Origin: Patescibacteria group bacterium | GTDB lineage: Bacteria; Patescibacteriota; Patescibacteriia; XYB2-FULL-38-15 | Assembly: GCA_041653675.1 (NCBI GenBank) | Contig: JBAZEY010000006.1 | Location: 837 to 64,836 of the forward strand | Direction: 5' to 3' | Length of the DNA stretch: 64,000 nt | Shown here: piece after piece, positions 6,263 through 60,488 of the stretch | How the letters are laid out: every line of letters begins with the position of its first letter | How positions within the stretch are numbered: position 1 is the first letter of the stretch | Program-made: the position numbers and the translations under genes | The notes under the pieces: generated by a model | Seen by the model: only the letters and a program-made list of their open reading frames with translations | Told to the model about the DNA's origin: nothing | The model's database searches: none

Positions 6263-7110
6263 ATTGTTATTAAATCAAAATTTATATTTTTAAGTTTAGA
6301 ATCAAAAAACAAAATTTCTTTACCTTTTTTAACACAAAAAGCTGTATAAATTAAATTAAATTCAAAACTATTCTTTACAAATTTATATAAATTTTTGATT
6401 TTTGAAGTATTATCATATGAAACTATCCAGTGAATTGTTTTTATTTTTTTAATTTCTTGCGATACTTTTTCATGATCTTCACTACTGTAAGAATTTTTGT
6501 AAAGACTTGGGCCTTTTAAATAATATGGCGGGTCAAAATAAAAAATAGTTTGCTGATTTTTAGATTCATCTTTAATTTTTTCAATCAGCTCAATGGCGTC
6601 TAAATTGAATAATTGAATTTGCTTTTTAAATTTTGCTATTTCCCTTATTCTTTTAATTAACTCCTGTTTCTTAAAACGACAATCCATTTTATAATTTCCA
6701 TCTTGCTTAATTCCTCCTATCAACCCGCCATCAATAATTCCGGACATGTTAACTCTATTAAGGAAAAAAGTAGAAAAGCCGAGCTGGATTAAGGATGAAT
6801 ATTTTTTTGTTTTTTGAATTGCCTTTGCCTTTCTCCAAGTTTCAACATTTATTTCAACATCTTCAATCATCTTACACAATTTATTTGTATGGTTTAAAAC
6901 AGAATACCAGAAAGCATAAATAGAGCGATCGTAATCATTTATAGTAATACTATCTACTTTTCCTTCTAATAATAAATACAAAGCCACAGATGCGCCGCCA
7001 GCATATGGCTCTACATAATGACTATTAATATTATTATCAACACAAATTTGAGCAATAAATTTTGCCAGCTTATTTTTTCCGCCTGGATATCTTAACGGTG
7101 AGTAGAACAT
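6259..7110 (-). CDS. DNA N6-adenine methyltransferase, Dam/D12 class
   Basis: N-terminal RYPGGK SAM-binding motif ([11 protein letters not shown]) and catalytic DPPY (FYFDPPYY). Confidence 0.85.
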
Positions 7111-8403: not shown

Positions 8404-9519
8404 TTATTTTTTCTTATGTCTTATAAGTATTCGGGTATAGAGTCTTTCGTTGTTTACATAACCCCTATCTAACTTACCTGTCCATTTAGGATTAACCAAT
8501 TTAGGTAATAAACCCTCTTTGATATTGTAATCACTTCCTAATATCTCAAACTGGTCCGGATTATATTTATCCAGAAAACTGCTCGGCACCCCCATTGCGC
8601 CACTATAATCGCTTGGGATGGAATCAGTAAACGGCACCTCTATAGCATTGTAATTGTCATATTTATCATATGTTTTTTTACCTTTAATTTCTTTGTGTTT
8701 GCTGTATTTCAAATTTTCTTCCATTGTCATAAGCGGCAATGGTTGGTGACGACGTCCGTGGTCAAGATTTGTCAACCAAACGGCAGGCACATTTTTCATA
8801 TTGACACCATCAATCACCTTATCGACATCACCATCATCCATCGTTACGAACCATAATCCGCCAGACCATCCTGTTTTTCCTGACCACATTTTATTGGCTT
8901 TAATCAACGGAAAAATTTCCTTGGATGTTACGTTATTTTTATTGCCAATAATCACAAACTTTTTATTATAATCAAAAAGTTGTTTAACATATACGAGAAA
9001 CAAACTGAACGGCGGATTTGTTACCACAATGTCGGATTGTTTAAGTAGATTTATACATTCATCACTGCGAAAATCGCCGTCGCCGTCTAGTGGCGCCCAT
9101 TCGTTTTGTTTGTTTGCTTTTAACTGCTTGGCAATATCCTTTAAGTTGAATTCGCCATCGCCATCTATGTCATGCACTTCGTTAATAATAAATTTGTTAG
9201 CGGTTACTTTCGGACGGCCTTTTGATTTCGTGAGAGTTTTGTCATCGCCATACAATGGTAGTTCCAAATTGGCAACGGGCGAGGGTTTGTAGCTCGTAGT
9301 GATAAGCCGTTTCAATCCAATCTTGTTAAAATTGAGCACGAAATAGCGAAAGAAATTACTCTCGAACGGATCGTCGCAGTTGCAATATACTACTTTGCCG
9401 CGAAAGACATCGGGATTAAAATCTAGATACGCCTGAATTTCTTTTTGAATATCGCCATACTGAGTATAAAACTCATCATTTTTCGCTCTTTTTGCGTTTG
9501 TAAGATTTTTGTTTGCCAT
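8404..9519 (-). CDS. adenine-specific DNA methyltransferase, EcoRI-methylase family
   Basis: N-terminal NDEFYTQYGDIQKEI...VYCNCDDPFESNF and catalytic NPPF (VVTNPPFSLF). It carries an insert with two DxDGDG loops. Confidence 0.75.
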   Translation of the reverse strand: MANKNLTNAKRAKNDEFYTQYGDIQKEIQAYLDFNPDVFRGKVVYCNCDDPFESNFFRYFVLNFNKIGLKRLITTSYKPSPVANLELPLYGDDKTLTKSKGRPKVTANKFIINEVHDIDGDGEFNLKDIAKQLKANKQNEWAPLDGDGDFRSDECINLLKQSDIVVTNPPFSLFLVYVKQLFDYNKKFVIIGNKNNVTSKEIFPLIKANKMWSGKTGWSGGLWFVTMDDGDVDKVIDGVNMKNVPAVWLTNLDHGRRHQPLPLMTMEENLKYSKHKEIKGKKTYDKYDNYNAIEVPFTDSIPSDYSGAMGVPSSFLDKYNPDQFEILGSDYNIKEGLLPKLVNPKWTGKLDRGYVNNERLYTRILIRHKKK

Positions 9520-17561: not shown

Positions 17562-17885
17562 TCAATCCCATGGGCCTCCTTTCAGCATATCCTCGGTGCG
17601 GCCGCAGCAAGAGCAACGAGCAAGATACCAGTTCACGACGTGTTCTTTCTGCCGTCCGCAGATCTTGCATACATGTGTTACCACTTCCTGCATCCGCTGC
17701 ATCGCCCTCCCGCAGCATCGAGTGAGCGTGTAGTTCTTCTTGAGTCCCCAAAGTCTTGGGGCGGGCTCAATCCGTTTCTCGCCGATCTGCTCCCAGTCCG
17801 GCTCATGTCCCACACACTTGCTGTGAACGCACGAACCGTTGTGGACATGCAGCTCGCAAGGAACTCCCTGGTTGGCATTGGCCAT
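17562..17885 (-). CDS. Cys-rich hypothetical protein (107 aa; CxxxC, CCGR, CKICGR, CSCCGR motifs) in GC-rich island a
   Basis: Strong SD AAAGGAGGG lies 7 nt before the ATG. GC content is far above that of neighbouring genes. Confidence 0.55.
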   Translation of the reverse strand: MANANQGVPCELHVHNGSCVHSKCVGHEPDWEQIGEKRIEPAPRLWGLKKNYTLTRCCGRAMQRMQEVVTHVCKICGRQKEHVVNWYLARCSCCGRTEDMLKGGPWD

Positions 17886-25597: not shown

Positions 25598-26344
25598 TTA
25601 TAATTTGCTGTCGATAATCTGTTTAAACTGATCGTAGGGAATTGCGCCACTCACCAATTCACCGTTTACGAAAGTCGCTGGTGTGCCTTCCACTCCAGCA
25701 GCGACCCCCGCCTCTTCTTCAGCGGCAATTTCGCTCGCGTATTTTCCGGAGTCAAGACATTCGTTAAATTTTTTCGTATTCAACCCAAGATTTTTTGCTT
25801 CTTCTTTCCATTTATCTACACCCATTGTCCCGGCCTCGTTAGCCGCAAAAATTTTGTCATACATTTCCCAAAACTTCCCTTGCTCAGCGGCGCACTCTGA
25901 AGCTTCTGCTGCTTTTTCCGCGTTTGCGTGGAAAGAAAGCGGATAATGTCGGAAAACTACCCGGACATCGTTTCCGTAATCATTTATAATTTTATCTATT
26001 GTAACTTTATGATTCAAGCAATAAGGGCACTCAAAATCAGAATATTCTATTAATGTCACTTTGGCATTTGCGGAACCAATGACATGGTCGTCAGAAGTTA
26101 CGGCCGGTACCGGAGTAAATGATGTTTCAGCTGGCTCATTCACAACCGCTTGATTAACATTTGCCGCGGCGTTTACGTTGCCGCTCTCTTTATTAGTCAA
26201 ACTTACTCCTTGGCCGGAAAAAGCCAAGATAAAAAAACCTACTAAAGCTAAAGTGCTTACCCCCGAAATTCCGCACATAAGCCCAAGAAAAAAAGAAGTG
26301 CGCCGGGTTCCCTTAACTAAGTCTGTATTAATTTGCTCATTCAT
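25598..26344 (-). CDS. DsbA-family thiol:disulfide oxidoreductase (membrane-anchored)
   Basis: N-terminal TM and a thioredoxin fold with CxxC (FECPYC). Confidence 0.75.
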   Translation of the reverse strand: MNEQINTDLVKGTRRTSFFLGLMCGISGVSTLALVGFFILAFSGQGVSLTNKESGNVNAAANVNQAVVNEPAETSFTPVPAVTSDDHVIGSANAKVTLIEYSDFECPYCLNHKVTIDKIINDYGNDVRVVFRHYPLSFHANAEKAAEASECAAEQGKFWEMYDKIFAANEAGTMGVDKWKEEAKNLGLNTKKFNECLDSGKYASEIAAEEEAGVAAGVEGTPATFVNGELVSGAIPYDQFKQIIDSKL

Positions 26345-26409
26345 AAATCTTAAATAAGTTAATGATTTAATATTTAGAAACTTTACTATAAATAATTTGT
26401 GATGTCAAG

Positions 26410-27174
26410 TTATGTTTTTTCGATAATTTTGGTCTTTAATTTTAAAAAAAGATAAATTCCCGCCGCCAATAAACCAACCGATAAATATTGTGCCAGCGTT
26501 AATCCGAAATATCTTGGATCCGCGCCAACTAAATCCTCTGCCCGCAAAAAATCCAGCAGAAATCGCGCCACGCCATATGAGGCGGCAAAAGTCGCGACGT
26601 AAAATCCGGAAAACCATTTTCGACGATGCAAAAATAAAAATACTAAAAAAATAACGAAGCCAAGAAGCGCATCATACAATCCCAAGTCGTGGCGAACTCC
26701 GCCGGGATAATTTACTCCCAAAAAAAAGTCTGTCTTCGCTCCGGGATGATCGTGGATAAAAAAACATCCGAGCCGACCGACAAAAAGTCCGAGTGGCAAA
26801 CCAAAAACTATCGCGTCGGCGTATTGCCAAAAATCAAGTTTATATTTTTTTAAATAAATAACGCTAGCCAAAATCGCGCCTAAAAATCCTCCGTAAATAG
26901 ACATTCCTCCCTGCCATAATTTTAAAATATCAAGTGGCGCGCCCAAATAAAAATTTAGATATTCTGCGATATAAAGCAAACGGCCGCCAATAAGCGCTGA
27001 TAAAATTATCCAAAAAGCCAAATCGTAAACGCGGCTAGTTTCCAGTTTGTTTTTTCTCAATTCAAAATAAGCGACAACCATTCCGACAATAAAGCTAAGA
27101 GAAACAAAAATTCCCCAAACATTCAATTTTAGGAAACCTGCATTTATTGATTGATATTCAAACCAGGGAATCAT
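26410..27174 (-). CDS. lgt: prolipoprotein diacylglyceryl transferase
   Basis: Lgt signature region (GGMSIYGG, HPGAKTD, 7 TM). Confidence 0.75.
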   Translation of the reverse strand: MIPWFEYQSINAGFLKLNVWGIFVSLSFIVGMVVAYFELRKNKLETSRVYDLAFWIILSALIGGRLLYIAEYLNFYLGAPLDILKLWQGGMSIYGGFLGAILASVIYLKKYKLDFWQYADAIVFGLPLGLFVGRLGCFFIHDHPGAKTDFFLGVNYPGGVRHDLGLYDALLGFVIFLVFLFLHRRKWFSGFYVATFAASYGVARFLLDFLRAEDLVGADPRYFGLTLAQYLSVGLLAAGIYLFLKLKTKIIEKT

Positions 27175-27182
27175 TTTTTAAT

Positions 27183-27860
27183 TTAAATTTTTCCCAGAAG
27201 CATCAGAACGCCAAGTACGAGCGATCCCAATCCAAGCACTAATCTCAGCCACTTTCTATTTTTTGTCCTCCATTCTTCCATCTGTTTCGCGGAAATCCCA
27301 AAATAAACTAAACCCAAAATAATAAAAAGCGGCAAGACAAAAATTAAATTGTAAAGCAGCAAATATGGCACGGCGGAAATTTGTGTTTCATGGCTCGCGA
27401 GTAATCCCAAAATTGCGATGTATACTCCCCCGGTGCAAGGGAGTTCAAAAGCGGAAACTAAAAAACCAAGCACGATAGCCGCGGGAATTGAGGCCTTGCG
27501 CACATATTTTTCAATCAATGGTTTTTTTGATTCGGGAATCGCCAGCGTAAAACCCTTGCCATACCAAAAAAAATCTTTAACATTCACGAGACCGACGAAA
27601 ATTAAAATTACGGCGGCAATTTTATAAATAATCCCCGCGACGCCAAACGTTGTCAGGATTTTTAATAATCCTAATCCCGCTAAAAAATAAACCACAAAAA
27701 CCGTGGCGATATAAACTAAACCAACCCGTAAAATTAATTTAGGCGAACCAATGGCCAAAAGATATCCGACTAAAAAAATCAGTACGGCAAAAGCGCAGGG
27801 ATTAATTGAATCAATCGCCGCTCCCCCGACCAATGCCGGAATGGTTAATGAATCAAACAT
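27183..27860 (-). CDS. ccdA: cytochrome c-type biogenesis/disulfide-reductant transporter CcdA (DsbD TM domain)
   Basis: Two conserved Cys, in NPCAFAVL and ELPCTGG, within 6 TM. Confidence 0.75.
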   Translation of the reverse strand: MFDSLTIPALVGGAAIDSINPCAFAVLIFLVGYLLAIGSPKLILRVGLVYIATVFVVYFLAGLGLLKILTTFGVAGIIYKIAAVILIFVGLVNVKDFFWYGKGFTLAIPESKKPLIEKYVRKASIPAAIVLGFLVSAFELPCTGGVYIAILGLLASHETQISAVPYLLLYNLIFVLPLFIILGLVYFGISAKQMEEWRTKNRKWLRLVLGLGSLVLGVLMLLGKI

Positions 27861-27861
27861 T

Positions 27862-28380
27862 TTATCTCCTTAAAAAATAAAAAATAATTAAACCAATGCC
27901 GATCGAGACAATGACTCCAATAATTACCCAGCCAACTATTTCATTTTGTCCCGCCCCTGAAGTTTCTGTCTGGTTGGTATTATTATTTATATCAGAAGTT
28001 TCCAATTTATAAAGCGGCGAAATACAAGTTTCCGCGGAACATTTTTCCACGGCATTTTTTAATTTTTCATAATTTTCCCCGACGATTGCTTCATCACCAA
28101 TAAAAATTGTTGGGACGCCGCTTGATCCGACTCCGTAGGCTTTAGCCATCTTTCCAAATAAATCCTGGTTTTCCTTGTTAAAATAAACTTCAAAATCGTG
28201 AACCGTAAGATTCGGATAATCAACTTTCATTCCTTCGAGAAAACTCTTCATTTTGGCGCAATGTTGACAGCCCTGTCCTTCAAAAAAATACAGCTCCACG
28301 GGATTTCCTGCCGCCAAACCAACTAGCGGAAAGAATAAAGCTAAAAGAAAAATAATTGAAATAATTTTTTTCATATTCAT
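27862..28380 (-). CDS. thioredoxin-fold protein with signal peptide and C-terminal TM anchor
   Basis: CxxC (GCQHC) and GVPTIF cis-Pro motifs. Confidence 0.55.
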   Translation of the reverse strand: MNMKKIISIIFLLALFFPLVGLAAGNPVELYFFEGQGCQHCAKMKSFLEGMKVDYPNLTVHDFEVYFNKENQDLFGKMAKAYGVGSSGVPTIFIGDEAIVGENYEKLKNAVEKCSAETCISPLYKLETSDINNNTNQTETSGAGQNEIVGWVIIGVIVSIGIGLIIFYFLRR

Positions 28381-28425
28381 TAATTTTACAACTAAAGGTC
28401 TCTCCGGTCAAACTGTTATCCCTCT

Positions 28426-30657
28426 TTATAATTTCACTCTTTTTAACCTCAAAGAATTTCCCACGACGCTTATACTCGATAACCCCATCGCCGCCGCAGC
28501 CAAAATCGGATTCAATAAAACTCCAAAAAACGGATAAAGGACACCCGCGGCGACTGGAATCAAAATTGTATTATAAGCATAAGCCCAAAATAAGTTTTGT
28601 TTTATAATTTTCATCGTTGCCCGGGAAAGTTCTAACGCCGCGACAACACCCGAAAGATCGCCCTTTATCAAAGTAATGTCTCCCGCCTCCATAGCGATAT
28701 CTGTGCCCGTTCCCATAGCAATGCCAATATCCGCGGCAGCCAAAGCTGGAGCATCATTAATTCCGTCGCCAACCATTGCTACAATTTTTCCCTCTGCCTG
28801 TAATTTTTGGACTTCTTCCGCTTTTCTTTCCGGTAAAACTTTAGCAATAACGCGTTCGATTCCAACTTCACGCGCGATCGCCTCAGCGGTTTTTTGATTA
28901 TCGCCAGTCATCATAATTACTTCCAATCCCATTTTTTTCAATTTTTCTACGGCGGCGCGCGAACTTTCTTTTGGTGTATCAGCCACGGCGATTAAACCAA
29001 TCTCTTTCCCATCTACTGCTACAATCATTACCGTTTTCCCCTGCCCCTCTAACTCGGCCATTTTTTCTTCCCCGCCCGACATAACAACTTCCTGCCCAAC
29101 CATCAATTGTTTTGTCCCAACTAAAACTTTTTTTCCGGAAATTTTTGCCCGAACGCCCGCGCCAGCGACGGCTTCAAAACTATCCGCTTCAGACAAAGCG
29201 ATATTTTTATTTTTTGCAGCCTCGACAATCGCCTGGCCGAGAGGATGCTCGGAATTTTTTTCCGCGCTTGCCGCCAAAAAGATTATTTCATTCTCCGGCA
29301 AAGAAGTGAAAGAAACAACGTCCGTTAAAGACGGCTTACCCGTCGTGATTGTTCCTGTTTTATCCATAACAACCGCGTTTGCCTTATGGGCGATCTCCAA
29401 ACTTTCCGCATCTTTAATTAAAATTCCGTTTGCCGCGCCAAGTCCTGTCCCAACCATAATCGCCGTCGGCGTCGCAAGTCCCAGGGCGCAAGGACAAGCA
29501 ATAATTAAAACTGCGACAAAGTTTAAAAGCGCAAAAGTAAACGCCGGAGCCGGACCAAAAATTAACCAAATAATAAAAGTTATCGCGGCAATCCCCAAGA
29601 CCGACGGAACAAAAATCGCTGTAACCTTGTCGGCTAATTTTTGAATTGGCGCTTTAGATCCTTGGGCGCGCAAAACTAACTCAATAATTTGCGCGAGTAT
29701 CGTCTCTTTTCCAACTTTAGTCGCTCTGAATTTAAACGCTCCGAATTTATTTATTGTCGCGCCGATAACCGGCTCGCCGACTTCTTTTGTCACCGGCATT
29801 GATTCACCGGTCACCATTGATTCGTCTATTGAGGTTTGTCCTTCAATAATAATTCCGTCAACTGGAATTTTTTCTCCCGGACGGACGACAACAATATCAC
29901 CGACTGCTACTTCTTCAACCGGAATATCTTTTTCTTCGCCGTCGCGCACGACGCGCGCGGTTTTTGCCCGCAGACCCATCAATTTTTTAATAGCCTCCGA
30001 AGTTCCCGCCCTGGCCCGAGCTTCAAGAAGCCGGCCGAGTAAAATTAAAGTGATGATAATCGCGGCCGTGTCAAAGTAAAGATTTACTTCCAAACCCGCG
30101 CCGCGAAAAACTTCCGGAAAAAAAGTCGCGACAAGGCTGTATCCATAAGCCGCTGAGGTGCCAACCGCGATCAGCGTATCCATATTCGCCATTTTATTTT
30201 TAAGCGCAATTAAAAATCCACGATAGAATTGCCAGCCGACCCAAAATTGAACTGGCGTAGCTAGAAAAAATAAAACTACGCGATTCATTAAAAATTCCGG
30301 CGTCCAAAAAAACCACTCAGGAAAACTTCCCCAAAAAACAAGGGTGCTTAAAACCGCGCCAACAAAAACTTTTCTTTTTAAATTTTTTAATTCTTCTTCG
30401 CGCATCATTTTTTCATGATCATGTCCGGGCGCGTGCATCGCATCAGTATCCATAAGGCTCGCCTTATATCCTAATTTTTCTATTGCTTCGATAATTTCTT
30501 TCTCGCTAACTTTTATCTCATTAAAATCAACCGCCGCTTTCGCCGCCGGCAAATTAACATTCACTTTTTCGATACCATCAATCTTTTTCAAAAAAATCTC
30601 AATATTGGCGGCGCAACTCGCGCAATCCATTCCTAAAACTTGAAAAATTTTCTGCAT
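28426..30657 (-). CDS. copA: copper-translocating P1B-type ATPase
   Basis: N-terminal HMA domain GMDCASCA, a TM CPC motif, DKTGT phosphorylation site and GDGINDAP. Confidence 0.9.
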
Positions 30658-30689
30658 AAAATATAACGTTAGTTTATTTTTAAAAAATT

Positions 30690-31823
30690 TTAATTAACAA
30701 TAAATTTTCCCCAAACCATCTTCATTCCGCAGGAAAAGGGAATCTCTCCTGTTTCGGTCGGCGTAAATTCAATGATATTTTCTCCATATTTCAAATCTTT
30801 TCTGATCCCGAATTTTTCCAGTAAAATCGCGTCGGTACAGCCGCTCATCTGTTTCACGTTTATAATCCATCTGACCGGCACATCCTTTTTTACATACAAA
30901 ACATTTGGCACATAACCGCGGTAAGTCAAATCCATTTTTATAATTTGGTATTCGCCTTCAGCCGGCGGCTCACCGCTCGCAGGATTTTCCACCACCTGCC
31001 CGTTCGGCAATAAATTTCTAAATCCCCAGCCGAAATTGGTAAGTCCGCGATTTAACATAAATAAACCCAGAATAATAACGACCACGCCGGAAATCTTCAT
31101 CATTTTTTTCACTCGTTCGCTGGAAATTGAAGTAATAAAATATCCAAAACCAAGCATCAAAAAAACCGTACCCGCACCAAAGAAAAACAAGGAAAGCGCG
31201 CCAGAGAGGGCGCTTCCGGTACCCAAGGCGTAAAACTGAACGGCTTGCAGAGGACCGCACGGCATAAATCCATTCAAAAATCCAATGATAAGCGGCCCTT
31301 TTGATTTCTTCTCGTATTTTTGGGAAAACAAATATTTGGCCACGAACATCGGCATCTTTGATTTTATTTTTTCAATGAAGTTAATGTTTTTAACAAGCGA
31401 CGCGCCCATGGCAAGCATTACGGCCGCGGCGAACAAAGTCAGGACACCGGAAAAAATGGGATTAACCCCAAAAAATGATCCGATGCCGCCCAAAACCGCC
31501 CCAACCAAAGTATATGAAATAATTCTTCCAAAATTATAATAGAGATGAGGAAGAATTTTTTTCTGATTCCCTTCTTGAAGACAGTTGCTGGCGGTGTAGG
31601 TTACTACAAACCCTCCGCACATTCCCACGCAATGAAAACTGGCAAGAATCCCGATTACAAATAATAACCCATATCCCAAATTTTTGTCCTGAAGCCGGGA
31701 AAAAATTTGAAGAACGCCGTTTTTTTGCAAAATAAAATAAACTCCCAAAAGCACTACTGCCCCTAAACCGATCAAAATATATTTTGTTGCCCTGACCTCA
31801 AAATTATCTTTTTTGTCTGACAT
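30690..31823 (-). CDS. DsbD_2/UreH-like transmembrane protein (HCxxMCGG) with C-terminal cupredoxin-like domain; probable copper handling
   Basis: HCVGMCGG motif in TM2. The C-terminal ~110 aa is a beta-rich domain with Cys/His/Met ligand candidates. The gene sits between csoR and copA. Confidence 0.45.
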
Positions 31824-41143: not shown

Positions 41144-41602
41144 TCACGAAGCTACGCGATGCAGTGCCTCCGCAAGAGTTGCGGGACGGTCTTCGCCCTC
41201 CCACTCGTGGATAACGAACTCACGCAGCCACTTGCCTCCGAAGTCGGCCGTATAATCATACGGTCCGCCGCCGAAGCGAGGACCTCGCTTGTATCCAAGG
41301 ATGCGGTCGTAGACCGCCTGTCCTGCCGCCTCCCCCTTCCGGCAAAACTCATCGAACTTCGCTTGATCCGCAGAAACTTGGATCAACGCCGCCTTGTGCT
41401 CATCTTCACCGCGCCCATCCAAGTCGTACCAACAGAGAAGAATGTGCTGACCCGGAGCGACCGTCACCCGGAAGTAACAGTCGCCATGCGACTTCCGCGT
41501 TGGACATTCGACCAGCACCTTCGCCCCGTCGGTTTCCAGACGCCCGTAGTAACCGGAGGGCGAATCGTACTCGGAAAAGTAGAAAGAACAAACCCCAGCC
41601 AT
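41144..41602 (-). CDS. hypothetical protein (152 aa) in GC-rich island b
   Basis: SD AAAGGGAGGG lies before the ATG. GC is high, and no motif is recognised. Confidence 0.5.
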   Translation of the reverse strand: MAGVCSFYFSEYDSPSGYYGRLETDGAKVLVECPTRKSHGDCYFRVTVAPGQHILLCWYDLDGRGEDEHKAALIQVSADQAKFDEFCRKGEAAGQAVYDRILGYKRGPRFGGGPYDYTADFGGKWLREFVIHEWEGEDRPATLAEALHRVAS

Positions 41603-46374: not shown

Positions 46375-46464
46375 CCATAAACTTTACCCGCCTTTCTGGC
46401 GGGTTTTTGAAATAAAAAAAGCGAGATCCAGTGATCTCGCAGACTCGTGTTGCCGGAACATGGA

Positions 46465-47094
46465 CTAGCTTGTCCGAGCGGCCTTAGGCGGCGGTTCATG
46501 CGCGTAGCAGTTGGTGCCGCAGAAAGGACACAGTGTAGCTTCTTCGGACGGCTGATCCTTCTGACCCCCGGACCTGGTCTCGTACGCCACGTAGCCGCAC
46601 TCGCAGACCAAGGTGTACTTGTCCAGGAAATCCTGCCCGAGACCGACGTCTTCGGAGTAGCACTCCGCTTCCTCTCCGCACTTCGGACATTTGGGCTTGG
46701 GCTTGGACTTCAACTCCACCTTCTTTTCTTCGGCCATGGTTTCCTCCTTCGTCTGCTCCTCGCAAGGCAAGAGGCCAGCCCGCCCCGCCATCGCAAGGAA
46801 ATTTATCATCTCCTGACAAACAGAACCGCAATATGGTCCAACTCGGCCGTTCTCATCGTAAGCGCCGAGTTCTTCACGAAGACGATGCACATCCTGCTGT
46901 GCGGCGTCCAAGAAGGCCGCCTCTCTCGCCGGCTCCCGCCGCGCCTCGCACATGTACACGTCAAGGCGTGCAATTGAGATGTAAAGGTACAGTGCCACAA
47001 CGGCGTCAATGTTTGGTACCTGGATCGTCTCTCTAACCTTGGTGCCGCAACTTAGAAATGCAGCCGCCAAGGCAACCATGAGGATTTTTTTCAT
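46465..47094 (-). CDS. Cys-rich putative lipoprotein (209 aa) with a Y-C-G-x-V-C-Q-E-M domain, GC island c
   Basis: Signal peptide plus lipobox-like FLSC. SD GAAGGAGG and a TTGACT-N17-TATATA promoter are present. Cys pairs CPKCG/CECG/CPFCG resemble a zinc ribbon. Confidence 0.6.
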   Translation of the reverse strand: MKKILMVALAAAFLSCGTKVRETIQVPNIDAVVALYLYISIARLDVYMCEARREPAREAAFLDAAQQDVHRLREELGAYDENGRVGPYCGSVCQEMINFLAMAGRAGLLPCEEQTKEETMAEEKKVELKSKPKPKCPKCGEEAECYSEDVGLGQDFLDKYTLVCECGYVAYETRSGGQKDQPSEEATLCPFCGTNCYAHEPPPKAARTS

Positions 47095-47110
47095 CTCTTT
47101 CCTCCTTCAA

Positions 47111-47139
47111 TATATAATCACTCTGAACAAAAAAGTCAA
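47111..47139 (-). promoter_or_regulatory. sigma70 promoter TTGACT-N17-TATATA for the 46465..47094 gene
   Basis: Both hexamers match consensus and the SD-ATG lies 20 nt downstream. Confidence 0.5.
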
Positions 47140-47140
47140 G

Positions 47141-47205
47141 AATAAAAAAGGGCTTCTGCGATAAGTATTGCAACGCTTGTGCAACACTAAACCGCAAAAG
47201 CCCAA
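47141..47205 (-). terminator. terminator hairpin (GGGCTTTTGCG...CGCAGAAGCCC + T6) after the 47210..47731 gene
   Basis: Compound hairpin followed by TTTTTTATT on the minus strand. Confidence 0.4.
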
Positions 47206-47209
47206 CGAC

Positions 47210-47731
47210 TCACGGCCCGCAAAAGAGGCCGTTTGCCCTCGCCTCCAAAAGAAACTTCGTCATCTCCTGGCAGACCGGACCGCAGTAGCAATCGGTCCGG
47301 CCGCGTGCGCGGTAGACGTCGAATTCCTGGCCCAGGCGGTCCACATCGCGCTCGGCGAAGTTACGAATCGCCTGACGGGCGCTCTCCTCCGCCATCGCCG
47401 CCTCGCAGATGCCGACTTCCATACGCTGAGTTTCCAGACTGAGATACTGCCCATGTGTTCCGCCGAGCGTCGGCTCGCAGGCGACTACCTCGACCGTGAC
47501 CGGATCGGTCGGCTCTGGCAGACTTCCTCCGCAGCCGACCAAAATGAGCAGAAGAATCCCGGCCAACGTGCTGGATCCGCCGCCGAAGGCCCAAGCATGT
47601 TCGCTCGGGTCCCAAACGCGCCACGGAACCTTGAGGTAATCGTTGTCGTTCAACAGCCCGCCGATCACCGCCGCGCCGCAGAGCAAAAAGAGAATTCCCA
47701 AGAAAACCGCCGTACTTCCACAGGATTCCAT
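47210..47731 (-). CDS. Cys-rich membrane-anchored/secreted protein, paralogue of 46465..47094 (shares the ~70-aa CEA...YCGxVCQEM...GL.C domain)
   Basis: Start reassigned to MESCGST, which is preceded by SD GAAGGAGGAGG. The conserved block ...VDRLGQEFDVYRARGRTDCYCGPVCQEMTKFLLEA... aligns with ...VHRLREELGAYDENGRVGPYCGSVCQEMINFLAMA... Confidence 0.6.
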   Translation of the reverse strand: MESCGSTAVFLGILFLLCGAAVIGGLLNDNDYLKVPWRVWDPSEHAWAFGGGSSTLAGILLLILVGCGGSLPEPTDPVTVEVVACEPTLGGTHGQYLSLETQRMEVGICEAAMAEESARQAIRNFAERDVDRLGQEFDVYRARGRTDCYCGPVCQEMTKFLLEARANGLFCGP

Positions 47732-47858
47732 TGTCCTCCTCCTTCTTGCCTCAATCGCCAATTTTAGGCGAATATAAAATTATCCAACATTTTTTGCTTT
47801 TTGTCAAGATTGATGATAAAATGAAACTACTTTTAAAAATATTTTAATTTAAAAACCC

Positions 47859-49139
47859 ATGTCTTTTTTATCAAAATTTGATCCCGAAATCGCGGACGCG
47901 ATTGAAAACGAAATCAACCGCCAACGCTCTGGTTTGGAAATGATCGCTTCGGAAAATATCGTTTCCCGCGCCGTGCTTGAGGCCATGGGCACCCCGCTCA
48001 CTAATAAATATTCCGAAGGCTATCCGGGGAAACGCTATTATGGCGGAAACCAATTTATTGATGTTTCGGAAAATTTGGCGATTGACCGCGCGAAAAAAAT
48101 CTTTGGTGCCGAGCACGCCAACGTCCAACCACATTCCGGCAGCCAAGCCAACGCCGCGGCCTACCTCGCGCTTATAAATCCTGGTGATAAAATTTTGGCC
48201 ATGAATCTCGCGCATGGTGGGCATCTTTCTCATGGCTCGCCGGTAAACTTTTCCGGAAAATTTTATAATGTTGTTTTCTACGGAGTAAATAAAGATACCG
48301 GCCGGATTGATATGGATGAAGTTAGAAAAATCGCCTTGGCAGAAAAACCAAAATTAATTTTGACTGGCGCCTCGGCCTATCCCAGAGAAATTGATTTCGC
48401 CGCTTTCCGAAAAATTGCCGACGAAGTCGGGGCGTATTTAATGGCCGACATTGCCCACATCGCCGGACTAGTCGCCGCAAAAATTCATTCCGACCCAATT
48501 CCCGTTTGCGATGTTGTGACAACTACGACTCATAAAACTCTTCGCGGCCCGCGCGGCGCCCTAATTCTTTCTAAAATCGCCGATCGCCTGCGTCCAGAAG
48601 ATAAAAAAAATCTAGCGCAAAAAATTGATTCCGCCGTTTTCCCGGGAATGCAGGGCGGCCCGCTTGAACATATTATTGCCGCCAAAGCCGTGGCTTTTTT
48701 AGAAGCACTGCAACCGGATTTTATTGAATACCAAAAACAAATTGTGAAAAATGCCAAAGTTTTAGCGGACACACTTTTGGCCGGCGGATTAAAATTAGTT
48801 TCCGGCGGCACGGATAATCATTTGATTTTAATTGACTTAACCGACACCGGACTCGGGGGCAAACAAGTTGAAGACGCGCTGGGCGAAGTGGAAATTTATG
48901 TCAACAAAAACATGATTCCCTACGATACCAGAAAACCACTTGATCCATCCGGCATCCGCCTTGGCACTCCGGCGCTTACCACCCGCGGAATGAAAGAAGA
49001 AGAAATGAAATTGGTCGGCGAGATGATTGTAAAAATTATAAAAAATATTTCCGACGAAAATATAAAAAAAGAAGTCCGCGAAAGCGTTCACGGACTTGTG
49101 ACGAAGTTTCCTCTTTATCCAGGGCTTTCAGTTTTATGA
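47859..49139 (+). CDS. glyA: serine hydroxymethyltransferase
   Basis: PLP lysine context [13 protein letters not shown] and overall SHMT motifs. Confidence 0.95.
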
Positions 49140-55365: not shown

Positions 55366-55452
55366 CCCTGGAGTGAGTGAATAGTCCTCGGATGTCCAGA
55401 CAAATAGAGAGAGATTTATTTGCTGAACGAAGATTATTCACTCGCTTCAGGG
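55366..55452. repeat. 18-bp inverted repeat (CCCTGrAGyGAGTGAATA) related to family A, at the left edge of GC island d
   Basis: ccctggagtgagtgaata-N51-tattcactcgcttcaggg. Confidence 0.55.
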
Positions 55453-55659
55453 TTCAAACATTTTTTGAGACCGCCACTTTTGTGATGTTCTCGAAAAATG
55501 TGGGGAACGAATGATGTGTAGTCACTCGTTCCCCGTGTGTTCGGTTTGTCTAGGCCGAAACCTGAGGGCTACTGCCTCCCTTGGACTCACCACTACGCAG
55601 GTGACGCGTTCCATCGCGGGCGGCGAGCGTTGACCTTGCGGTCAAGCGATAGCGGCTAT

Positions 55660-55839
55660 CTATCTCACGCCTACCTCCTCCTCTTCACCGAGCAGGAACT
55701 GGACGAACCGGTCCAGCTGCGGTTCATACCGCTGCATGAATCGGACCGTCGCCCGCGGTGCGATCCGGTCGGCGATTCTGACCACGATGACCGCGGAGAC
55801 AAGAATCGCCGTGCTGGCGACCTCCCGTACCACCTTCAC
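55660..55839 (-). CDS. small hydrophobic protein (59 aa, GTG start) in GC island d
   Basis: SD GAAGGGAGGAAG lies 4 nt before the GTG. The sequence has one TM-like segment (STAILVSAVIVV). Confidence 0.35.
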   Translation of the reverse strand: MKVVREVASTAILVSAVIVVRIADRIAPRATVRFMQRYEPQLDRFVQFLLGEEEEVGVR

Positions 55840-56077
55840 AATCTTCCTCCCTTCTAGCCGCCAAGGACCAGCAAAGAGGCGACAAAAGCGAAGAACAAAC
55901 CGAGCCAGAACACGTGGCCTTCTCCGGCTCCCTCCATCTCGCCGACCACCATAAGCCGGCGACGCTCGAACTTTTTGACTCCTTTCATGATGACGTAGAC
56001 GTCCGCGCCTACCACCAAAATTCCCAGAATCACCCTGGCCGTGGACAAATTTTCTTGCCTCCTCTTGGTCGGATGAA

Positions 56078-56227
56078 CTAGGAGCAATCCTCGCCGTCGT
56101 CGCCGTCGCAGGCGTCGACCACATCATCGCATCCCGCGTCCGCCTCGCACGGCGGAGAGAGATCGATGAACGTGTTGCTGCAACCGAGCGCGAACATCAC
56201 GAACAGCACCATGAACATCTTTTTCAT
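56078..56227 (-). CDS. truncated paralogue (49 aa) of the Cys/Asp-rich lipoproteins
   Basis: MKKMFMVLFVMFALGCSNTFIDLSPPCEADAGCDD... has the same signal, lipobox and first Cys-motif as the two large paralogues. It is preceded by the third copy of the leader repeat. Confidence 0.4.
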   Translation of the reverse strand: MKKMFMVLFVMFALGCSNTFIDLSPPCEADAGCDDVVDACDGDDGEDCS

Positions 56228-56371
56228 CTCGTTTCTTTCCCTTCTTTTGCCTCCGCCAAAGGCGGAAAAATTTATGAAATGAACTTTCCTCTCTTCGAGT
56301 TCACCTGTTTACTGTTCGAGCGGAGCGTTAGCGAAGTCGAGAACTTCTCGACTCACTTCGTTCGCTCGAAG

Positions 56372-56545
56372 AATAACAGATGCCCTCGAAAGAAGGCGGA
56401 ACACATTTTTTAGGTGGGTTCCGCTAAGCTCGTATTTTTTCTTGCTGTCACCTTGCGGTGATTTAGGAAAATTTACGAGCCACCGTCCGAAGGACTCGGA
56501 CGATTTCCGGCATACTTTTGGAAGCCGGCTTATTTTGGAAGGTGC
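56372..56545 (-). repeat. leader repeat copy 3 (distal ~175 bp, near-identical)
   Basis: Matches 57727-57900 and 59469-59640 almost base for base. Confidence 0.85.
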
Positions 56546-56547
56546 TA

Positions 56548-57627
56548 CTACGGGCAGTCCTCGTCGACCAGTCCGTCGCAGTTGTCGTCGAGGCCGTTGC
56601 CACACGTGTCGATGGAACCCGGAATGGACCAGATGGTTCCGGGTGGCGACGAATCGCAGGCCAGCTGGAACATCTCACCAGGCGCGTTGCAGGTGATGAC
56701 GCCGAACTCGGTGCAAAGACCTTCGTCGGAGAAGATGACGCAGGTACGACCGAGATCCTCTCGGTAGTCCTCGTCCGTTTCCCCATCGCAGTCGTTGTCG
56801 ATCTCGTCGCAGAGTTCCTGGGCGTCCGGATTGATAGCCGCGTCGCTATCGTCGCAGTCTTCCGCATTGGTAACGTACCCAGGAGGCATATCCTCGGTTG
56901 GACAGTGTGACGAGGTAGCGGTGGGGGTGTCGAATCCGAAGCCGTCGCCGTCTCGATCAAAGTAGATCGGAAAGCGATCGATGGCATCCGCGTCCGTCTC
57001 GCCGTCGCAGTCGTTGTCGAGGCCGTCGCAGATCTCGCCAACGCCGGGATGGACAGCCGGATTGTGATCGTCGCAGTCGTAGTACTCACCCGGCGAAGAA
57101 CCACAGAGCTGATGACCATCGACGTCATCATCACGTCCGACAAGCAAACAGTGATTCATCACACAACGGGAGATGATGCACTCACTGTCGCGAAAACCGC
57201 AGTCATCGGAAGTGACACACTCTGGCGGCGCGCAGGCGGGATCATCGGACGGAACGTGGCGACAGATGCCGCCAACCTCGCAGAGGTCGACCGTGCAGTC
57301 GTCGCCGTCGTCGCAGTCCGCACTCGTCTCACATTCGGTAGTCGGGAGACACACGCACATGTCGCCGGAACAAACGCCGGTTGACATGCCTTCTGCCTGG
57401 CACTCGAAAACGCAATCGGTCGGCACGCAGTCGGACGGCGGCTCGCAGGCCGGATTGTCGGAGGGAACCATGACGCAGGTGCGGTCAATGCCGCAGATGT
57501 CCACCGTGCAGGGGTCGCCGTCGGCGCAGTCCGCGTCCGAAACGCACTCCTGACTCAGATCGAGGAACGTGTTGTTGCAACCGATCGCGAACAGAACCAC
57601 GGACAGAACCATCAACGTATTCTTCAT
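56548..57627 (-). CDS. secreted Cys/Asp-rich lipoprotein with MopE/TSP3-like DxDxDGxxDC metal(Ca)-binding repeats
   Basis: Start reassigned to MKNTLMVLSVVLFAIGC (SD AAGGAAGGAAAG). It has repeats CDGLDNDCDGETD, CDEIDNDCDGETDED, CGNGLDDNCDGLVDEDC and ~14% Cys. The ORF-track N-terminus (MFRLLSRV...) is the upstream leader read in frame. Confidence 0.65.
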   Translation of the reverse strand: MKNTLMVLSVVLFAIGCNNTFLDLSQECVSDADCADGDPCTVDICGIDRTCVMVPSDNPACEPPSDCVPTDCVFECQAEGMSTGVCSGDMCVCLPTTECETSADCDDGDDCTVDLCEVGGICRHVPSDDPACAPPECVTSDDCGFRDSECIISRCVMNHCLLVGRDDDVDGHQLCGSSPGEYYDCDDHNPAVHPGVGEICDGLDNDCDGETDADAIDRFPIYFDRDGDGFGFDTPTATSSHCPTEDMPPGYVTNAEDCDDSDAAINPDAQELCDEIDNDCDGETDEDYREDLGRTCVIFSDEGLCTEFGVITCNAPGEMFQLACDSSPPGTIWSIPGSIDTCGNGLDDNCDGLVDEDCP

Positions 57628-57900
57628 CTTCTTCTCTCTTTCCTTCCTTGTTGTAAAGAACTTTGTCCCGGACACGCGAAACATCGCGGCCGAGAAACTT
57701 TCCTCTCTTCGAATTTGCCACGCAACGCGTGGTACCCTCGAAAGAAGGCGGAACACATTTTTTAGGTGGGTTCCGCTAAGCTCGTATTTTTTCTTGCTGT
57801 CACCTTGCGGTGATTTAGGAAAATTTACGAGCCACCGTCCGAAGGACTCGGACGATTTCCGGCATACTTTTGGAAGCCGGCTTGTTTTTGGAAGGAACTA
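57565..57900 (-). repeat. leader repeat copy 1 (~335 bp, identical to 59307..59640), comprising the first codons plus 5' UTR/promoter
   Basis: An exact duplicate covering the signal-peptide codons, SD and ~270 bp upstream with several hairpins (TCACC-GCAA-GGTGA, CCACGC-GTT-GCGTGG, TCCGA-GTCCT-TCGGA). Confidence 0.85.
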
Positions 57901-59370
57901 CTCGGCGATCACGAGCTTCGTGGAGGCGATCATGGGGAGACCCGACAGGAAACAGATCTCATGGCCGACGTCAATGTCGTCCGCGCTCATGATCCCGAAC
58001 TGGAAGATCTCTCCCAATTCGGGATGGTCGGCTCCGAACCCGCTCAGAGAAAGCTCGACGTACGAGATTTCGACTTCCGGCGGCACCGCGATGTTTTCGA
58101 AGACAATCTGATCGCCGGGACTCCCTTCTCCACTGGGTACGATCTTCTCCTTCCGGATCGAAACCCATTCGCCCGAGAACGGAACCCTCCCATGCAGTGT
58201 CAGCCACGCATCCAAGCTGGCATCACCCTGGAGAACCGTGAAGGCAATCCGAGGGATCACGCCTGTTTCAATCTGAACCATGAAGGCGAACTTCGCCACC
58301 GAAACCTCGTAAGTGCTGCTGTCCATCGGTGCGCACCAAGTGTCCTCGGCACACTCGCTCGGTACCACCTGTCCGTACGTAACCCAGTTGACCCACGGAA
58401 ACACGGGCGGACCACTGATGAAGAGCGAGCTGCAGAAATCCGCGGGGTAACGTGGTTCAGTGACGGTTGAAGAACAGGAATGGAAAGGATGGCTGGTGCA
58501 CGCGGGAGCTGGTGGGCAAACGGAATCTTCGTCCGTCTCGCCGTCGCAGTCGTCGTCCGCGCTGTTGCAGACCTCGGTAGTCGGGATGCAGGCAGGCCCA
58601 CAGTCCTCGTCGACCGCCGTGTCGCAATTGTCATCTCGACCGTTGCCGCAGACCTCGTCGGCGCCGGGATGAACATCCGGATCGTGATCGTCGCAATCGT
58701 AGCGTTCGCCTTCCGGCAGACCGCCGCAGAGCGACCGACCGTCGCCATCGTCATCACGTTCGAAAGCGAAGCACGAATTCGCCAAGCAGCGGAAGACGAG
58801 ACACTCGCCGTCGAAGCGAGCGCAATCGGCATCCGTGCGGCACTCGGGTGGTGTCTCACAGGCCGGATGACCGGCGCAACCAGAGTCGGCACAGTCGGCA
58901 CGACCGTCGCGATCGTTGTCTGCGCCATCCGTACACTCGCCGGGCTCGTCACCCTCGTAGTCGTCGACTTCCACATCCGCATCAGCGTCCGCATCGGCAT
59001 CGACGTCCGCGTCAGCATCCGAAGGCGTCTCGCAGGCCGGATGACCGGCGCAACCAGAGTCGGCGCAGTCGAACTGACCGTCACGGTCATTGTCCACGCC
59101 ATCCGTGCATTCTCCGGGCTCGTCGCCCTCGTAGTCGTCGGTACTTGCATCCGCGTCGGCGTCAGCATCGGCATCCCGGTCGTCCACCGGCTCGCAAGCC
59201 GGGTTGTCGGAGGGAACCATGACGCAGGTGCGGTCAATGCCGCAGATGTCCACCGTGCAGGGGTCGCCGTCGGCGCAATCCGTGTCCGACTGGCACTCGC
59301 TGTCGAGGAACGTGTTGTTGCAACCGATCGCGAACAGAACCACGGACAGAACCATCAACGTATTCTTCAT
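57898..59370 (-). CDS. secreted Cys/Asp-rich lipoprotein paralogue (~490 aa) with duplicated GECTDGxDNDRDGxxDCADSGCAGHPACETP modules and a C-terminal ~170-aa beta-rich domain
   Basis: Same signal, lipobox and first 25 residues as 56548..57627. It has poly-(DA) linkers, an internal exact module duplication and SD AAGGAAGGAAAG. Confidence 0.65.
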   Translation of the reverse strand: MKNTLMVLSVVLFAIGCNNTFLDSECQSDTDCADGDPCTVDICGIDRTCVMVPSDNPACEPVDDRDADADADADASTDDYEGDEPGECTDGVDNDRDGQFDCADSGCAGHPACETPSDADADVDADADADADVEVDDYEGDEPGECTDGADNDRDGRADCADSGCAGHPACETPPECRTDADCARFDGECLVFRCLANSCFAFERDDDGDGRSLCGGLPEGERYDCDDHDPDVHPGADEVCGNGRDDNCDTAVDEDCGPACIPTTEVCNSADDDCDGETDEDSVCPPAPACTSHPFHSCSSTVTEPRYPADFCSSLFISGPPVFPWVNWVTYGQVVPSECAEDTWCAPMDSSTYEVSVAKFAFMVQIETGVIPRIAFTVLQGDASLDAWLTLHGRVPFSGEWVSIRKEKIVPSGEGSPGDQIVFENIAVPPEVEISYVELSLSGFGADHPELGEIFQFGIMSADDIDVGHEICFLSGLPMIASTKLVIAE

Positions 59371-59640
59371 CTTCTTCTCTCTTTCCTTCCTTGTTGTAAA
59401 GAACTTTGTCCCGGACACGCGAAACATCGCGGCCGAGAAACTTTCCTCTCTTCGAATTTGCCACGCAACGCGTGGTACCCTCGAAAGAAGGCGGAACACA
59501 TTTTTTAGGTGGGTTCCGCTAAGCTCGTATTTTTTCTTGCTGTCACCTTGCGGTGATTTAGGAAAATTTACGAGCCACCGTCCGAAGGACTCGGACGATT
59601 TCCGGCATACTTTTGGAAGCCGGCTTGTTTTTGGAAGGGA
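59307..59640 (-). repeat. leader repeat copy 2
   Basis: Identical to 57565-57900. Confidence 0.85.
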
Positions 59641-60123
59641 CTAGAGCGTGATGACGCCGTCGTGACCGTACATCATGACCATCGCCATTGCGCCGTTCTT
59701 CATCACGAGGCCTCCGAGGCCTCGCACCAGCTCCCGCGCTTCCCTTCCGGTTGCGTCATCGGGAGTGGTGGTGCAAAGAGCGACATCGTCGTAGGGATAG
59801 CCGAGCTCGTCGCGGAGCCGCTGCCGCGCTTCGTCCTCCGAGGAGGACGAAGCGATGATGTGTCTCGCGGCGACTTCGATCTCGGCGTCGGTCATGTCGG
59901 GGTAGGACTTGCACTGCACCACGGCGGCTCCGACCAAACCGATGAGCTTGGTGTGCTGGGCCGCACGAATCACGGAGTTGGCGAGCGCCAAGGCCTTGCA
60001 AGGGTTGCGTTCACCCACGAAGGACATGGAGGGGTTGTGACCCCTCGAACGCTGCCATGCAGCGTGCGCCACGACCTGCTCGGCAGAGCCTTCGGGCCAG
60101 CCGAGAACACCAGACTTCTGCAT
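59641..60123 (-). CDS. hypothetical protein (160 aa) in GC island d
   Basis: SD GAAGGGAAGGAAGAG lies before the ATG. GC is high, and no motif is recognised with confidence. Confidence 0.5.
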   Translation of the reverse strand: MQKSGVLGWPEGSAEQVVAHAAWQRSRGHNPSMSFVGERNPCKALALANSVIRAAQHTKLIGLVGAAVVQCKSYPDMTDAEIEVAARHIIASSSSEDEARQRLRDELGYPYDDVALCTTTPDDATGREARELVRGLGGLVMKNGAMAMVMMYGHDGVITL

Positions 60124-60488
60124 CTCTTCCTTCCCTTCTTTCGTCCCGCGATTCTGCGGGAAGTCAACGAACTCTTGTTCCCTCTCCGCACCATGCGGTT
60201 TAGGAAATCTTTCGGACAGAAACTTGCGCTTCTGCCCTGGCTTGAATCGGCGAATCTTCGTCGCCTCAAGTCATTTGGACAAACAAAAACGGGCGGAGAG
60301 AATCCGCCCGAAATTAAATTATTTGTACAAATAATTTAGGGTGGTTTTCCCGCCACTTTGGCGAGTCTCTCTCAAACCGACCTATTTCATTGTCAACAAA
60401 TTAGTATACCATAAAAACAACAATCTGTCAAGAGCCTTTGACAGATTTTAGATGATATTTTGGCTAATTTTAGATAAAATATATTATG

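Follow-up and report, generated by a model that had tools for sequence, protein, structure and literature searches.

Clade-restricted, cysteine-rich predicted surface lipoproteins encoded by GC-rich genes of Patescibacteria group bacteria

Genes A and B at the locus

The DNA analyzed here is a stretch of 64,000 nucleotides (nt) from a Patescibacteria group bacterium (assembly GCA_041653675.1, contig JBAZEY010000006.1), referred to below as the window. It carries two neighboring minus-strand genes, A and B, encoding cysteine-rich proteins that we regard as probable surface lipoproteins. Gene B (47210..47731, minus strand) encodes 173 amino acids (aa) followed by a stop codon; its product is a predicted prolipoprotein with a transmembrane (TM) hairpin. 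The open reading frame (ORF) of A (46465..47094, minus strand) encodes 209 aa including a fused tail, the Z module. Gene A proper (46762..47094, minus strand) covers residues 1–111, with signal peptide MKKILMVALAAAFLS ending at C16 and then a three-helix domain.

An earlier, sequence-only reading of the window had described A and B as paralogous Cys-rich genes, and the relationship is borne out: BLASTP aligns the products with E = 2e-14 and 35% identity across 120 aa, far beyond chance, and a hidden Markov model (HMM) of the shared domain, run against the six-frame translation of the window, finds these two copies only. Of the lengths proposed then, 209 and 174 aa, the first is retained for the A ORF and the second becomes 173 aa. 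The ORF of B was listed as 47210..47761; the ATG preceded by an AGGAGG Shine–Dalgarno (SD) sequence lies at 47731 and yields a protein identical to NCBI entry MFA5413479.1, from a metagenome-assembled genome named "Patescibacteria group bacterium". The shared block is likewise real but longer than the ~70 aa first assigned to it: the unit spans ~85 aa, begins at the 'YLxL' helix and is predicted to form a three-helix bundle.

The nonsynonymous/synonymous divergence ratio (dN/dS) in the domain, or ectodomain, is 0.08–0.33 (0.08–0.15 among close relatives), indicating purifying selection in this frame. It is looser in the N-terminal part of B (0.26–0.8), and on this basis residues 1–63 are taken to be translated. 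The family protein evolves faster than its neighbors, with 57–59% identity where glyA has 93–94%. Long plus-strand frames opposite B (47168–47767) and A (46447–46977) were considered as antisense genes and rejected: synonymous-codon shuffles give equally long open frames, and in L001, L003, L011 and L012 (loci of related genomes are numbered L, and family proteins P) the frames are interrupted, making them a by-product of codon usage rather than a conserved feature.

The promoter of B (47779..47807, minus strand) reads TTGACA-N17-GATAAT, with 11/12 matches in the consensus scan, and its −35 box, spacer and −10 box are kept in the relatives L012, L006, L009, L001 and L017. The 5′ untranslated region (UTR) of B (47735..47771, minus strand), as read from the sequence, contains a small putative hairpin, TCGCC..GGCGA (47771–47755), and the SD AAGGAGGAGG (47744–47735). 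Both hairpin arms and the SD are conserved across genomes (upstream alignment A5), with a stem so invariant that covariation cannot test the hairpin. This element (47755–47771) sits at the predicted 5′ end of the mRNA and could stabilize the transcript. The intrinsic terminator of B (47141..47203, minus strand) consists of a long hairpin (47203–47150) and a U-tract, with a predicted RNA fold of −36.3 kcal/mol and z = −6.71 versus shuffles. The promoter and SD of A (47101..47139, minus strand), also read by eye, comprise TTGACT (47139–47134), an N17 spacer, TATATA (47116–47111) and the SD GAAGGAGG (47108–47101); the consensus scan did not list this promoter because the last base of its −10 box is A. 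A terminator downstream of A was detected by the terminator scan (46411..46440, minus strand; given elsewhere as 46440–46421). The sequence-only reading had credited each gene with a TTGACT-N17-TATATA promoter, an SD and a terminator, which describes A completely and B except for its promoter. These signals support the view that A and B are independent transcription units in this window, each with its own promoter, SD and terminator. The combination of near-consensus promoter, strong SD and strong terminator suggests high expression, and both products are probably abundant.

The Z module (A residues 112–209; 46465..46761, minus strand) contains eight Cys and one His arranged as CxxC / CxC / CxxCx3Cx2H, and has an SD (AAGGAGG, 46749–46743) and an ATG (46737) of its own. 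The zinc-ribbon-like CPKC, CEC and CPFC pairs noticed earlier are indeed present in the C-terminal part of A, but judging from the reading frames they belong to a small gene in its own right that has been joined in frame to A. A-type orthologues of 112–114 aa end three residues past the last Cys, and the 90%-identity cluster of the NCBI entry for A holds an 86-aa protein, P0040, that starts exactly at A Met120. In the relative L027 the A-type gene ends in ..SCKE-TAG, and 14 nt further on, after GGAGGAG, a separate 86-aa ORF (P0040) closely similar to the tail follows; in the window the TAG has become CAG, and two extra nt bring Z into frame. P0040 is the only Z homologue found. Comparison of Z with Pfam gave matches far below threshold (Zn_Ribbon_1, E = 0.84; YacG, E = 0.55), and its AlphaFold2 model, with short strands, has low confidence, with a predicted local distance difference test score (pLDDT) of 46–72. 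The A-type gene of L027 (223–560) is itself frameshifted, being called as 91 aa ending in ..PYCGPFAKK with the rest of the domain in another frame, and may be a pseudogene or an assembly error.

The sequence-only reading did not recognize the shared domain, and databases did not either. For A and B, nothing significant was found in Pfam, NCBIfam, PHROGs or PADLOC, the best PHROG/PADLOC matches having E = 0.027 (DrmA, 10.7 bits) and E = 0.036; when 19 diverse members were scanned singly against Pfam, no match was significant or recurrent. The domain likewise found no counterpart in a profile search of PDB sequences or in Foldseek against PDB and BFVD (best PDB match E = 0.15, a complex-I subunit; none with TM-score above 0.43). 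A lysozyme-inhibitor or metal-chaperone fold, named at the outset as the finding that would make the annotation ordinary, was looked for, and neither lysozyme inhibitors (Ivy, MliC/PliC) nor metal chaperones matched by sequence or fold in Pfam, NCBIfam, PDB sequences or Foldseek PDB. The Rfam scan returned only two distant tRNAs, no family member was found among viral contigs in IMG/VR, and a literature search found no description of the family.

A word-indexed search with B returned 22 homologues of 44–79% identity, all without Pfam domains, and with A only A itself; A-type relatives were obtained only through exhaustive profile search and inspection of neighboring ORFs. The exhaustive HMM search of 1.84 billion (1.84e9) representative proteins (cluster representatives) with the domain profile found only 19 proteins, and all matches with a named source are 'Patescibacteria group bacterium'. 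The family is thus very narrow, clade-specific and previously unclassified. Kinship to other GC-rich ORFs of the window was considered and rejected, the hhalign probability being 0.2% for island a (17562–17885) and 0.1% for island b (41144–41602); the faint resemblance to the island-a protein that had been pointed out is therefore a matter of chance. The Cys-rich ORF of island a itself (minus strand) is 107 aa long and matches no family; the complementary strand is open as well.

Lipobox, transmembrane hairpin and cysteines

Structure prediction for the shared block, suggested along with its discovery, was carried out and gave a confident three-helix bundle. In B the bundle occupies residues 91–173 (47213..47461, minus strand), with predicted helices at 91–113, 116–142 and 152–166 and with Cys109, 148, 150, 154 and 171; the protein ends in ..LFCGP. 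The AlphaFold2 model of this domain, built from a 19-sequence alignment, has a mean pLDDT of 84.8, exceeding 90 in the helices. The bundle is preceded in B by a linker of ~20 aa with an extra Cys, namely residues 68–90 (47462..47530, minus strand), an acidic, Pro-containing segment GGSLPEPTDPVTVEVVACEPTLGG that includes Cys85; the model gives it low pLDDT and assigns it no secondary structure, and its sequence is conserved. The corresponding domain of A has predicted helices at 29–53, 55–82 and 91–105, carries Cys49, 89, 93 and 111, and is modeled with pLDDT over 90 at residues 30–110.

The lipobox Cys is invariant among the 39 distinct family members covered by our cysteine and lipobox tallies (39/39), with G, A or S at position −1. 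It lies at residue 15–30 of a normal signal peptide in 14/39 (A and 13 others) and behind a hairpin, at residue 59–95, in the remaining 25/39 (B and 24 others). The earlier proposal that both proteins have signal peptides with a lipobox-like Cys holds for A, whose arrangement is ordinary (F-L-S-C16, with K2 and K3 in the n-region), and needs revision for B, in which Cys67 stands behind the hairpin and not in a simple N-terminal signal peptide. The box of B reads L64-V65-G66-C67 (47531..47542, minus strand). Residues 1–63 (47543..47731, minus strand; alignment A1) comprise a predicted first TM helix, TM1 (~8–27), a Trp-rich basic loop (28–49, ..KVPWRVWDPSE..) and a second hydrophobic segment (56–63), the loop carrying the conserved motif W[KR]V.W.VWD.SE.

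Lys and Arg residues number 0–1 in the N-tail, 2–5 in the loop and 0–1 in the first 20 residues after the Cys; their concentration in the loop predicts an N-out / loop-in / C-out topology. Three members with a B-type domain (P0024, P0026 and L018a) carry this box at Cys16, in an N-terminal signal peptide of ordinary type, and in the B protein of L001 TM1 is deleted, so that a loop remnant, ..QRR.., serves as an ordinary n-region. Together with the Lys/Arg bias, these orthologues and the L001 deletion point to a domain outside the cytoplasm in the hairpin forms too. In the gene tree, forms with a plain signal peptide branch from within the hairpin forms, which suggests that the hairpin was lost several times; at least three losses (L001, L017 and L018) left a standard lipoprotein signal peptide. 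Since losing the hairpin leaves a signal peptide of working type, the segment before the Cys probably works as one. The window also encodes prolipoprotein diacylglyceryl transferase, Lgt (26410..27174, minus strand; PF01790, E = 1.4e-51). In our view A and B are best explained as lipid-anchored surface lipoproteins, with lipidation itself predicted from these features.

It is conceivable, if doubtful, that hairpin B stays unprocessed, as an uncleaved two-TM protein with an external C-terminal domain whose 'lipobox' is a relic of a signal-peptide ancestor. A Cys at residue 59–95 in 25/39 members would fit such a protein, and the conserved loop motif suggests a separate role for the N-terminal part. 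However, a relic would not be expected to keep the [GAS]-C box invariant, as even the hairpin forms do, and the hairpin losses seen in L001, L017 and L018 have each left a standard lipoprotein signal peptide behind. If B is instead processed in the predicted topology, a cut by signal peptidase II would give rise to a second product, a two-TM peptide staying in the membrane. We therefore raise, as a speculative and rather unlikely extension, that the hairpin precursor yields two products from one gene: a disulfide-held surface lipoprotein and a conserved two-TM peptide of ~66 residues with its own function. We know of no bacterial lipoprotein described as having this arrangement.

The six ectodomain cysteines (C1–C6) are all present in 20/39 members. 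C1 and C3 are jointly absent in nine, including A, and C4 and C5 are jointly absent in six, where N and F stand instead. C6 is kept in 39/39 and C2 in 36/39, being absent only from the divergent P0033, P0036 and P0038. The loss of cysteines only in pairs points to three disulfides rather than to one shared metal site; we infer the bonds Cys85–148, Cys109–171 and Cys150–154 in B, and Cys49–111 and Cys89–93 in A.

A candidate catalyst of such bonds is encoded beside lgt: a DsbA/BdbD-like oxidoreductase (25598..26344, minus strand; PF13462, E = 3e-30; PF01323, E = 9e-22), whose translation shows a TM anchor and a CPYC motif. Near this pair the window encodes an exported protein of thioredoxin fold with a CQHC motif, as well as a DsbD_2 protein, and the three suggest that an extracellular oxidative-folding machinery is present. 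They belong to a minus-strand envelope/redox cluster (25598–31823) that begins with the DsbA-like CPYC protein and Lgt and continues with a membrane protein weakly matching SfLAP (27183–27860), the exported CQHC protein, glutaredoxin-like and with a C-terminal TM segment (27862–28380), and the DsbD_2 protein, fused to a cupredoxin-like domain (30690–31823).

Alternatively, the cysteines might be metal ligands, and the domain a module that binds or chaperones Cu, Zn or Fe-S and that, in the hairpin form, may lie in the cytoplasm. Such a role would suit the dense C-x-C-x3-C cluster (CYCGPVC) at a helix N-terminus; TM1 acting as an N-in signal anchor would put the domain of hairpin forms in the cytoplasm, and a GC-rich block at 56–59 kb of the same window encodes lipoproteins with putative metal-binding MopE motifs. 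Nevertheless, two pairs of cysteines are lost independently of each other with the rest retained, unlike the behavior of one shared four-Cys site. The orthologues with ordinary signal peptides place the same domain outside the cell, and the charge bias puts the loop inside. No metal-binding family was matched by sequence or fold, and the oxidizing machinery of the window is extracytoplasmic. A metal-binding role is thus the less likely one, and we consider it improbable.

The glyA/ELP3-like slot and the GC anomaly

In all loci long enough to show flanks, the family occupies a single slot between glyA and a gene for an ELP3-like radical-SAM protein, within the conserved order dnaB, permease, LigD_N, folD, glyA, X, ELP3-like, methyltransferase, Mur ligase, where X is the family array. 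The order folD-glyA-X-ELP3-like-methyltransferase was seen in L001, L003, L004, L006, L008 and L009, and glyA-X-ELP3-like in L017. The slot is also occupied by the most divergent member, P0023 (44% identity). It contains one to three tandem paralogues, with copy number differing between genomes: B alone in L003, L006, L008 and L009, B with an A-type gene (112–114 aa) in L001, L017 and L023, and B, A and a third type (P0036) in L018. The synonymous divergence of the family is similar to that of the flanking genes, though not always, L001 being an exception (2.4 vs 0.85).

The glyA of the window (47859–49139) is 93–96% identical to those of L001, L006, L009 and L012, but only 61–63% identical to those of L003 and L008. 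For the ELP3-like gene the gap between these groups is much smaller (83–87% vs 75–79%), and glyA may have been replaced in one of them.

The constant slot and flank-like synonymous divergence rule out a recent insertion, and the idea of a recently inserted island is accordingly abandoned. A variant of it, a recent mobile island or prophage remnant carrying moron lipoproteins such as superinfection-exclusion proteins, is in our estimate very improbable. It would account for the sharp GC step at the gene borders and for the GIY-YIG ORFs adjoining the slot in L001 and L013, and phages do use small disulfide-containing lipoproteins for exclusion, T5 Llp being an example. Yet the family keeps its slot wherever flanks were recovered, even at 44% identity, with synonymous divergence comparable to that of the flanks; no useful flanking repeats and no integrase or tRNA were found near the locus, no member was found in IMG/VR, and PHROG and PADLOC gave no matches.

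Small free-standing GIY-YIG ORFs of 89–96 aa adjoin GC-rich slots in three relatives (L001, 5577–5867; L013, 335–622; L006, 10685–10954), either between glyA and the family gene or beside a slot between murB and a radical-SAM gene; none is found at the window's own slot, and a link to DNA turnover is possible. That murB/radical-SAM intergenic slot contains a GC-rich ORF in three genomes (window, 41144–41602, minus strand; L001, 11584–12009; L006, 11844–12173). The three proteins look mutually unrelated by eye, and the site may be a second slot gathering GC-rich accessory DNA in the clade.

The GC-richness noted in the sequence-only reading is confirmed: GC is 0.57 in A and 0.61 in B compared with 0.43 in the window, and the increase is restricted to the coding sequences. 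At third codon positions (GC3), A and B reach 0.68–0.73 vs 0.39–0.45 in neighboring genes. The homologues are GC-rich in every genome (GC 0.50–0.62; GC3 0.50–0.75 vs 0.39–0.50 in neighbors), consistent with a foreign or ancestrally GC-rich origin. Codon fractions in the family and the background are 0.69 and 0.10 for AAG, 0.53 and 0.17 for GAG, 0.79 and 0.36 for CAG, and 0.57 and 0.16 for TTC.

Third-position changes were polarized by parsimony on a 17-taxon tree of B-type genes, giving 339 GC-to-AT and 163 AT-to-GC changes in the family (ratio 2.08, p = 3e-15; 2.0 within the closest clade). At equilibrium these changes imply a GC3 of 0.48, compared with an observed 0.65 (about 0.48–0.55 vs 0.65–0.71). 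The same ratio is 1.13 in glyA, 1.08 in the ELP3-like gene, 1.02 in folD and 0.75 in the methyltransferase gene. A 2:1 excess in the family against about 1:1 in the flanks means that GC in the family is declining toward the level of the host. On the simplest interpretation, a GC-rich gene was acquired long ago by the clade ancestor, has been vertically inherited and is still ameliorating.

Active maintenance of the GC content, first suspected from the persistent GC3 excess, was rejected when the polarized substitution test went against it. It could have taken the form of GC-biased gene conversion at a recombination hot spot, a process documented in bacteria (PMC4450053), or of selection on codons or mRNA. 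GC3 is raised in every lineage despite a synonymous divergence of 0.5 to over 1, and the gene evolves faster than its neighbors with synonymous divergence not always in step with the flanks (L001, 2.4 vs 0.85), as maintenance would allow. Apart from the 2:1 GC-to-AT excess against near 1:1 in four flanking genes, however, the G-ending Lys, Glu and Gln codons are unlike translational selection in a low-GC genome, and the long antisense ORFs, which are not conserved, result from the codon usage. We therefore judge maintenance to have little probability.

Elsewhere in the window, a 5-kb GC-rich block (55400–60300, GC 0.56–0.60) contains two minus-strand lipoprotein genes (56548..57756 and 57898..59499). 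As listed, they have an identical 5′ end of 66 residues including signal peptide MKNTLMVLSVVLFAIGC, and both carry Cys-rich PF11617 'Cu-binding_MopE' repeats (E = 5e-22 and 2e-9); the pair appears to stem from the recent duplication of a gene that looks foreign. Two minus-strand genes (6259–7110 and 8404–9519) in a low-GC stretch (0.29–0.34) encode DNA adenine methyltransferases (D12 class; EcoRI-methylase-like) and probably form a restriction-modification island.

Proposed role and comparison with known systems

Taking these observations together, we propose, with a probability of roughly 0.7, that B, A and the fused Z form a GC-rich accessory array in the glyA/ELP3-like slot, that it encodes lipidated, disulfide-held three-helix proteins, and that it descends from an old acquisition. 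Both proteins would be exported by Sec and lipidated by Lgt at the invariant lipobox Cys, and the CPYC DsbA-like oxidoreductase encoded beside lgt would fold them oxidatively into disulfide-held three-helix bundles of ~85 aa. The bundle of B would be tethered to the outer face of the cytoplasmic membrane by its acidic, Pro-containing linker of ~20 residues. In B and most B-type orthologues a first TM helix and a basic, Trp-rich, putatively cytoplasmic loop would stand ahead of the signal-peptide-like segment, the topology and cleavage of this form being predicted. The family, once gained by the clade ancestor, would have remained in one slot through vertical inheritance, undergoing tandem duplication and drift to the low GC of the host.

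Several points weigh against this proposal. Cys67 of B is outside the usual lipobox range of residues 15–35, we know of no documented Lgt/Lsp processing behind a TM hairpin, and signal peptidase II (Lsp) was not among the window ORFs scanned, although no search was aimed at it. The disulfide map rests on covariation of Cys loss, and P0033, P0036 and P0038 depart from the six-Cys pattern. When branches are fairly long, as here, parsimony can inflate common-to-rare changes, a bias that the flank controls and the close-clade subset reduce but do not remove; moreover, we know of no GC-rich donor lineage, the family being found in this clade only. As for the role, the locus offers no informative neighbor and no fold match, and a three-helix bundle is generic.

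Nothing about the proteins suggests an enzyme. From its architecture, the most likely role of the family is that of a non-enzymatic binding module of the surface or envelope, involved in cell–cell or host contact or in envelope organization. A reasonable rival, albeit one that we consider unlikely, is that A and B are orphan immunity lipoproteins neutralizing envelope-targeting toxins or lytic enzymes of hosts or competitors. They are small, fast-evolving, tandemly duplicated in varying copy number, exported and anchored at the membrane surface, where wall and membrane toxins act. On the other hand, the slot neighbors are housekeeping genes with no adjacent toxin gene in any locus, no known immunity family was matched, and purifying selection on the ectodomain is fairly strong (dN/dS 0.08–0.15 among close relatives).

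Patescibacteria, tiny organisms of which most are uncultivated and many are believed to live in attachment to other cells, have surface proteins that are largely unknown. The present work defines a clade-restricted, probably highly expressed family of predicted surface lipoproteins with a new small domain and a disulfide map open to testing, and offers a concrete target for structural work, antibodies and localization in enrichment cultures. With its lipobox behind a hairpin, the unusual precursor could widen the range of sequences regarded as lipoprotein signals. The result also indicates that a "GC-rich island" in a streamlined genome of low GC can be an old acquisition, vertically inherited and still losing GC, rather than a recent transfer. 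The significance remains modest, as this is a family without an assigned function and not a new mechanism.

Among known systems, the monoderm lipoproteins of the Sec/Lgt pathway (PROSITE PS51257) are the closest in their signal: in A and 13 other members a K/R n-region and a hydrophobic core are followed by [LVIF]-x-[GAS]-C at residues 15–30, and Lgt is encoded in the window. B and 24 others differ by carrying the box after an extra TM helix and a predicted cytoplasmic loop, and the mature domain is in no described family.

The short helices and their two or three inferred disulfides recall saposin-like, twin-CX9C and CX3C helix hairpins, but the inferred 1–3, 2–6, 4–5 connectivity differs from the nested saposin pattern, and Foldseek gave no match with E below 0.15 or TM-score above 0.43. 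The Z module resembles small zinc-ribbon proteins in its CxxC...CxC and CxxC-x3-C-x2-H spacing and in the short β-strands of its model; it differs in giving Pfam/NCBIfam matches only at E = 0.8 and above and in the low confidence of that model.

Braun's lipoprotein Lpp of E. coli is small, abundant and forms a trimeric coiled coil without disulfides, with a C-terminal Lys that binds peptidoglycan. The likeness lies in the working principle only, that of a small helical lipoprotein expressed monocistronically from a strong promoter with a strong SD and terminator; neither sequence nor fold matches, and B would be an intramolecular three-helix bundle with predicted disulfides and the ending ..LFCGP. 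The Lpl (DUF576) array of Staphylococcus aureus is unrelated in sequence and fold and much larger than the arrays of one to three genes described here. It nonetheless provides a parallel in genomic organization, since in both cases lineage-restricted, tandem paralogous lipoprotein genes are found at one chromosomal site in variable copy number.

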